The position numbers and the translations under genes are program-made. 64,000 bases of DNA from Escherichia coli (lineage in GTDB: Bacteria > Pseudomonadota > Gammaproteobacteria > Enterobacterales > Enterobacteriaceae), in the NCBI RefSeq assembly GCF_016026235.1, contig NZ_CP065613.1. One strand, 5' to 3'. The notes under the pieces are model-generated. The model saw only the letters and a program-made list of their open reading frames with translations, was not told the origin of the DNA and did not search any database. Shown one piece after another: positions 63,287 through 64,000 of this stretch (position 1 is the stretch's first letter; each line of letters starts with the position of its first letter).

Positions 63287-63817
63287 TTACTCATAGGTGA
63301 TGGAAAAATTGACAAGGGCATTCGCTGTGCCACCAGTGGCCTGAGTGTTGACGACCACATAGCTCGCCTTGTAGTGAAGCGACGTGGTTTCGCCATCAAT
63401 CGCCCATTCAATCGGCGTTCCGCCGGAGCCTTTGGGAACTTGCTGCGTTCCTTTATCGTCCTCTATCTTCAACGCAACACCCGTTGCGCCACCAGCCTCA
63501 AGGGCGAACATGGAATCATCATCGCTGTCCGGCTGACTGTCCATCTCAACGGTCGCTTTGGAGATCCCATCGCAGTCTTTGAGTTCAAGAGTGAAATCTT
63601 TCTTACTCAACACCGTACCGACTGTGGCAGGTTTTGGCAGCATCATAGTGCCCATATCAACTTCGAGATCGCTTTTTTCAAGCTCACAGGCTTTCGTGGT
63701 GATGGTAATCGAGAAATGAATATCTCCTGCCGGGCCAAGATCCGTTGCCGCAATCACCCCGCAGGCAACCAGACTCAAACTGGCGATGCCAGTATGCAGC
63801 AATCGTTTGAATTTCAT
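63287..63817 (-). CDS. lpfE: fimbrial minor subunit (chaperone-usher pilin; lpfE-like)
   Basis: 176-aa ORF with signal peptide and pilin-like Cys pair; not K-12 content at this position; gene symbol inferred from the known O157 lpf1 position between yhjW(eptB) and yhjX. Confidence 0.55.
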   Translation of the reverse strand: MKFKRLLHTGIASLSLVACGVIAATDLGPAGDIHFSITITTKACELEKSDLEVDMGTMMLPKPATVGTVLSKKDFTLELKDCDGISKATVEMDSQPDSDDDSMFALEAGGATGVALKIEDDKGTQQVPKGSGGTPIEWAIDGETTSLHYKASYVVVNTQATGGTANALVNFSITYE

Positions 63818-63821
63818 GGCC

Positions 63822-64000
63822 TCACTCCATTTCCAGATATATGGTCGTTACGCCTTCAAATGTCCCGGCTTTCGGTGCTTTACCCGTCGTGCTGATCGGT
63901 AAGGCCAGCAGTCGAATCGCGGCATTGCGGTGAGTCGCCGAATCCAGGCTGCTCAAATCTAATAACGTAGTGCTGTTTGCATCATTTGGTACCAGAATTT
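63822..64000 (-). CDS. 3' end of an upstream fimbrial gene (lpfD-like), truncated by window end
   Basis: manual minus-strand translation gives ...GTFEGVTTIYLEME-stop at 63822-63824, 4 nt before the next gene's start; below the track's length cut-off. Confidence 0.4.
   Translation of the reverse strand, partial: ILVPNDANSTTLLDLSSLDSATHRNAAIRLLALPISTTGKAPKAGTFEGVTTIYLEME

Follow-up and report, generated by a model that had tools for sequence, protein, structure and literature searches.

The final 714 bases of the window (the whole stretch of Escherichia coli DNA that was analysed, 64 000 nucleotides of contig NZ_CP065613.1) can be assigned with high confidence to the distal end of lpf1 (lpfABCDE, of the O-island 141 type), a long polar fimbriae operon that encodes a type 1-like chaperone–usher fimbria and lies here at its usual site between eptB and yhjX. 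The feature has been described before, as a known operon at a known site. The window contains the whole of lpfE and the 3′ end of lpfD; lpfA, lpfB, lpfC and most of lpfD fall outside it. The assignment marks the strain as lpf1-positive and its importance beyond correct annotation is small. In EHEC and other E. coli, lpf1 is recognized as an adhesin and colonization factor and has been linked to M-cell and Peyer's-patch interaction; lpfA mutants in OI-141 of EDL933 show less M-cell translocation and less interaction with Peyer's patches (PMC5357955).

lpfE and the 3′ end of lpfD

The lpfE gene occupies positions 63287..63817 (stop codon included) on the minus strand. In the ORF listing of the window it is intact, with an ATG start, and encodes a complete minor fimbrial subunit of 176 residues. 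The NCBIfam equivalog model for LpfE (NF011752) matches this ORF end to end (1–176 of 176) with a score of 291.3 bits against a cut-off of 169, and the Pfam Fimbrial domain (PF00419) covers residues 33–176 (E = 4.9e-19, 69.6 bits against a gathering score of 25.6). The protein is identical to LpfE of strain AHM8C212RI at all 176 positions and to that of EDL933 at 165 of 176.

The protein carries sequence features of a chaperone–usher pilin subunit. Besides the Fimbrial domain, the N-terminus resembles a signal peptide (MKFKRLLHTGIASLSLVACGVIA/AT, ending VIA/AT), Cys44 and Cys82, as read from the sequence, form the pilin cysteine pair and the chain closes with a tyrosine-containing β-strand (...NFSITYE). 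LpfE aligns with the solved pilin structures of FimA, FimI and FimG, with FimI and FimA chains among the top PDB matches. A sequence-only reading of this DNA had described a pilin-like gene of 176 residues at this place, which the coordinates, NF011752 and PF00419 bear out.

The Fimbrial domain is common to all of the families concerned, and weak matches to models for BcfD, BcfE, BcfF, StgD and FimH were also obtained, so that both ORFs might be thought to belong to a different chaperone–usher fimbria, such as lpf2 (OI-154) or a bcf-like or stg-like system. We regard the probability of this as negligible: the LpfE model gives 291 bits, no other fimbrial model exceeds 60 bits, and both locus and sequence match lpfA1-type clusters. 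A bcf, stg, fim or lpf2 identity was rejected on these model scores, and the match to the EDL933 locus also speaks against it.

Upstream of lpfE, the minus strand carries the 3′ end of lpfD, the tip adhesin gene, at 63822..64000, comprising its last 58 codons and a TGA stop; the gene runs past the window edge. An open frame extends from 63998 down to 63825, and the TGA lies at 63824–63822. The fragment matches positions 302–359 of the 359 in the NCBIfam LpfD model NF011753 (E = 1e-14) with 54.6 bits, the full-length cut-off of 412 being out of reach for a 58-residue fragment, and it covers positions 101–149 of the 151 in the Pfam Fimbrial model. All 58 residues are identical to the C-termini of the 351-residue LpfD homologues of FDAARGOS_943 and AHM8C212RI, and 53 of 58 are shared with EDL933. 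The full-length homologue matches PDB entry 5AFO (E = 3e-66), which we take to be LpfD from the adherent-invasive strain E. coli LF82, an adhesin. The second fimbrial gene end that had been noted upstream from manual translation is thus real, being an open frame of 58 codons that matches the LpfD model. In agreement with the remark that an ORF track had missed it, the ORF listing of the window gives only an internal fragment of 44 residues with a TTG start, since it leaves out frames that continue past the window edge.

The lpfD stop and the start codon of lpfE are 4 nt apart. At this junction (63818..63833, minus strand) the sequence reads ...CTGGAAATGGAGTGAGGCC ATG; the end of lpfD contains a ribosome-binding motif, GGAG. 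Such tight spacing would fit co-transcription and coupled translation of the two genes.

The eptB–yhjX locus

On its other side lpfE is flanked by the conserved gene eptB (yhjW; 61341..63032, minus strand), which is an ORF in the window, is annotated at the matching place in FDAARGOS_943, EDL933 and AHM8C212RI, and corresponds to K-12 b3546. Beyond eptB, in the downstream direction, lie the tRNA-Pro(CGG) gene proK (61173–61249, minus strand) and dppA, which is intact in the window with 535 residues. The spacer between dppA and proK also holds a match (60999–61080, 66.9 bits) to Rfam naRNA4, a REP-derived nucleoid-associated RNA.

In K-12 MG1655, yhjX comes directly after eptB, whereas the order in O157:H7 EDL933 is eptB–lpfE–lpfD–lpfC–lpfB–lpfA1–yhjX. 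Both locus claims of the sequence-only reading therefore stand: comparison with MG1655 confirms that the fimbrial genes occupy the place of K-12 yhjX beside eptB, and the site corresponds to that of lpf1 in O157:H7, the order agreeing with EDL933 lpf1 (O-island 141). The assignment of the site in O157:H7 rests on the RefSeq annotation of EDL933, the cluster of which is the lpf1/O-island 141 of the literature (PMC5357955). A literature search for lpf together with yhjX or yhjW returned no paper on E. coli and a single one on Salmonella.

The 183 bases upstream of eptB (63033–63215) are common to K-12 and are kept in the window. When the spacer is aligned with the K-12 eptB–yhjX region, the two are near identical as far as ...GCAAGT and are then unrelated except for the stem of a hairpin. 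Similarity to K-12 thus stops at about 63215, and the segment 63216..63286 forms the eptB-proximal edge of the lpf-specific DNA.

The hairpin lies within this segment, at 63263..63280 on the minus strand, 6 nt past the lpfE stop. It is G+C-rich (stem GGGCCAG/CUGGCCC, loop CAUC) and may be a stem-loop at the operon end, although without a U tract. The minus strand of 63225–63300 folds with −18.9 kcal/mol (z = −2.27), and the hairpin 3′ of lpfE is kept in EDL933, FDAARGOS_943 and AHM8C212RI. A terminator scan gave no canonical terminator after lpfE, that is, between lpfE and eptB, because the hairpin is not followed by a run of T. On this arrangement, transcription might conceivably continue from lpf into eptB. 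In Salmonella, lpfABCDE–yhjW–proK has been treated as a single putative cistron (PMC2930847).

The lpfE hairpin (GGGCCAGGATGCTGGCCC, no T run) shares its 7 bp stem with a K-12 hairpin downstream of yhjX (GGGCCAGTTAATTGGCCC, then a T run; positions 5698–5715 of the K-12 locus, L002); the loops differ. In lpf-positive strains the end of yhjX is different (400 versus 402 residues) and a different hairpin follows that gene. The variable segment may therefore begin within the 3′ end of yhjX and reach as far as the lpfE hairpin.

To speak of an insertion at this site is to claim a direction of change, and the data do not settle whether lpf-positive lineages gained lpf by insertion or K-12-like lineages lost or replaced it, since the lpfABCDE–yhjW–proK arrangement is the same in Salmonella and a second, divergent lpf lineage occupies the same site in E. 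coli.

Prevalence, the remaining operon genes and allele divergence

A query of 776 bases of lpf-specific sequence was compared with 5426 complete E. coli genomes, a genome being counted when it held at least 80% of the query. The lpf1 type is present in 422 of them (∼8%): three at an identity of at least 99%, six at 95–99% and 413 at 90–95%, the last class taking in O157:H7 and O145:H28. Another 77 genomes show 60–80% nucleotide identity to the query. Over the 776 bases the window is 93.4% identical to EDL933, so its allele is not that of O157:H7. It is an uncommon allele of the same lpf1 operon and otherwise unremarkable.

Three complete E. coli genomes, in which eptB, lpfE and a fimbrial protein are annotated, match the last 1001 bases of the window at 99.9% identity; PGAP gives lpfE by name and calls the gene upstream merely 'fimbrial protein'. 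Direct alignment revealed a single nucleotide difference in these 1001 bases for each of AHM8C212RI and FDAARGOS_943. Both of these genomes have an intact lpfABCDE, with an LpfD of 351 residues, an usher of 857, a chaperone of 228 and an LpfA1 of 174. Pfam searches with AHM8C212RI, which are independent of the annotation, gave PF00577 (719 bits) together with PapC_N and PapC_C for the usher, PF00345 and PF02753 (PapD_N and PapD_C) for a PapD-type chaperone and the Fimbrial domain for the pilins. With these two genomes as proxies, the remaining operon genes probably follow the window end in the present strain.

The possibility that any of the complete genomes represents the same strain was rejected: over the 12 kb from 52000 to 64000 the best match among them is 98.5%, against 99.9% in the last 1 kb. 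This difference suggests that the backbone surrounding the lpf locus is mosaic, a product of recombination.

In FDAARGOS_943, IS1A splits dppA, and ISEc60 with slyX/fkpA follows lpfA1 in place of yhjX (positions 4046–6430 and 15102–16618 of that locus, L001), which indicates that the far end of its cluster has been rearranged in association with IS elements.

The genes in the window could also be a remnant of a cluster that has been truncated or inactivated just past the window edge, by an IS element, a deletion or an usher pseudogene, such that no fimbria is made. IS activity does occur near the locus in a relative that is 99.9% identical (IS1 in dppA and ISEc60 beside lpfA1, where the yhjX junction has been lost), the internal stop in lpfC of EDL933 means that the intactness of the operon is not to be assumed, and strain NCTC9112 matches only 83% of the query. 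Against this, lpfE is full length, the visible end of lpfD is identical at 58 of 58 residues to intact homologues and all five genes are intact in both of the nearest genomes inspected. We consider a remnant improbable and favour the end of a complete lpf1 operon.

Relative to EDL933, proteins of the window-type cluster are identical at 98.9% (LpfA), 98.2% (LpfC), 95.2% (LpfB), 88.6% (LpfD) and 93.8% (LpfE) of positions. Relative to the divergent lineage, the corresponding values are 89.7% (LpfA), 75.5% (LpfC), 76.8% (LpfB), 51.6% (LpfD) and 56.8% (LpfE). Across lpf lineages, most of the divergence thus falls on LpfD and LpfE, and LpfA, the product of the typing gene, is not where it accumulates. 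It is mildly useful to note that lpf1 alleles likewise vary mainly in the genes at the adhesin end, lpfD and lpfE, whereas typing relies on lpfA.

A block of 300 bp in lpfD of AHM8C212RI, within the receptor-binding N-terminal half (positions 10342–10641 of that locus, L005; residues ∼79–179), has a nucleotide identity of 69% to EDL933; outside this block the rest of the cluster is at 92–99% and eptB at 100%.

A tentative extension, to which we attach a low probability, is that the variant could bind a different host receptor, a difference that lpfA1 typing would miss, since its tip module, formed by LpfD and LpfE, has moved away from the O157:H7 type much further than the shaft, usher and flanks, the 69% block of the nearest relatives included.

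Assembly, the role of LpfE and comparison with known systems

The assembly steps expected here follow from membership of the chaperone–usher class and are established for the fim and pap systems. Lpf subunits would be exported by the Sec pathway to the periplasm, where the chaperone LpfB would capture them, and the usher LpfC would polymerize them by donor-strand exchange. LpfA would form the shaft, and LpfD (351 residues, with an N-terminal receptor-binding half and a C-terminal pilin domain) would serve as the tip adhesin. LpfE (176 residues), as a minor pilin, would be incorporated into the surface fibre by donor-strand exchange, by analogy with these systems. We infer that the fimbria is produced.

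The role of LpfE has been left open in the literature (PMC4636846). Most likely, LpfE is an adaptor between LpfD and the shaft built of LpfA, a role favoured because it is the only other structural subunit encoded in the operon. A less probable role, though one deserving some weight, is that of a FimI-like or PapH-like subunit that ends polymerization and anchors the fimbria at the usher, in which case LpfE would not be an adaptor. The scores of LpfE against non-Lpf models lean this way, with FimA (59.8 bits) and FimI (50.3 bits) ahead of the adaptors FimG (37.4 bits) and FimF (31.3 bits), and chains of FimI and FimA also rank among the top PDB matches. A terminating LpfE would, however, leave no product of lpfABCDE to link the adhesin to the shaft. 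The absence of such a linker is possible but unusual in type 1-like fimbriae, judging from fim and pap. LpfD and LpfE also co-diverge between lineages (51.6% and 56.8%, against 89.7% for LpfA), which fits a direct contact between the two proteins, although gene linkage explains it equally well. On balance, the adaptor role is preferred.

Among known systems, lpf1 of EDL933 (lpfABCC′DE, O-island 141) is a close counterpart. It has the same site, gene order and orientation, equal gene lengths (LpfE of 176 residues and LpfD of 351) and the same eptB–lpfE spacer including the hairpin. It differs in its usher gene lpfC, which the EDL933 annotation gives as a pseudogene interrupted by an internal stop (hence lpfC and lpfC′; positions 10668–13241 of the EDL933 locus, L003), whereas the relatives of the window type have an intact usher of 857 residues. 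The divergent lpf lineage, inspected in one (E. coli 09-02E) of the 77 genomes that match at 60–80%, has the same five genes in the same order at the same eptB–yhjX site. Salmonella enterica lpfABCDE, likened here by arrangement, shares the operon name and gene order and has yhjW (eptB) and proK as neighbours (PMC2930847). The NCBIfam equivalog models for LpfD and LpfE cover both the E. coli and the Salmonella proteins.

Type 1 fimbriae (fimAICDFGH) belong to the same chaperone–usher assembly class and the same pilin fold family. The layout of the two operons differs, in that lpf has only one minor subunit besides the adhesin, and LpfE falls far below the cut-offs of the Fim equivalog models. 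The lpf adhesin is a different protein from the type 1 adhesin and a different receptor is therefore to be expected.
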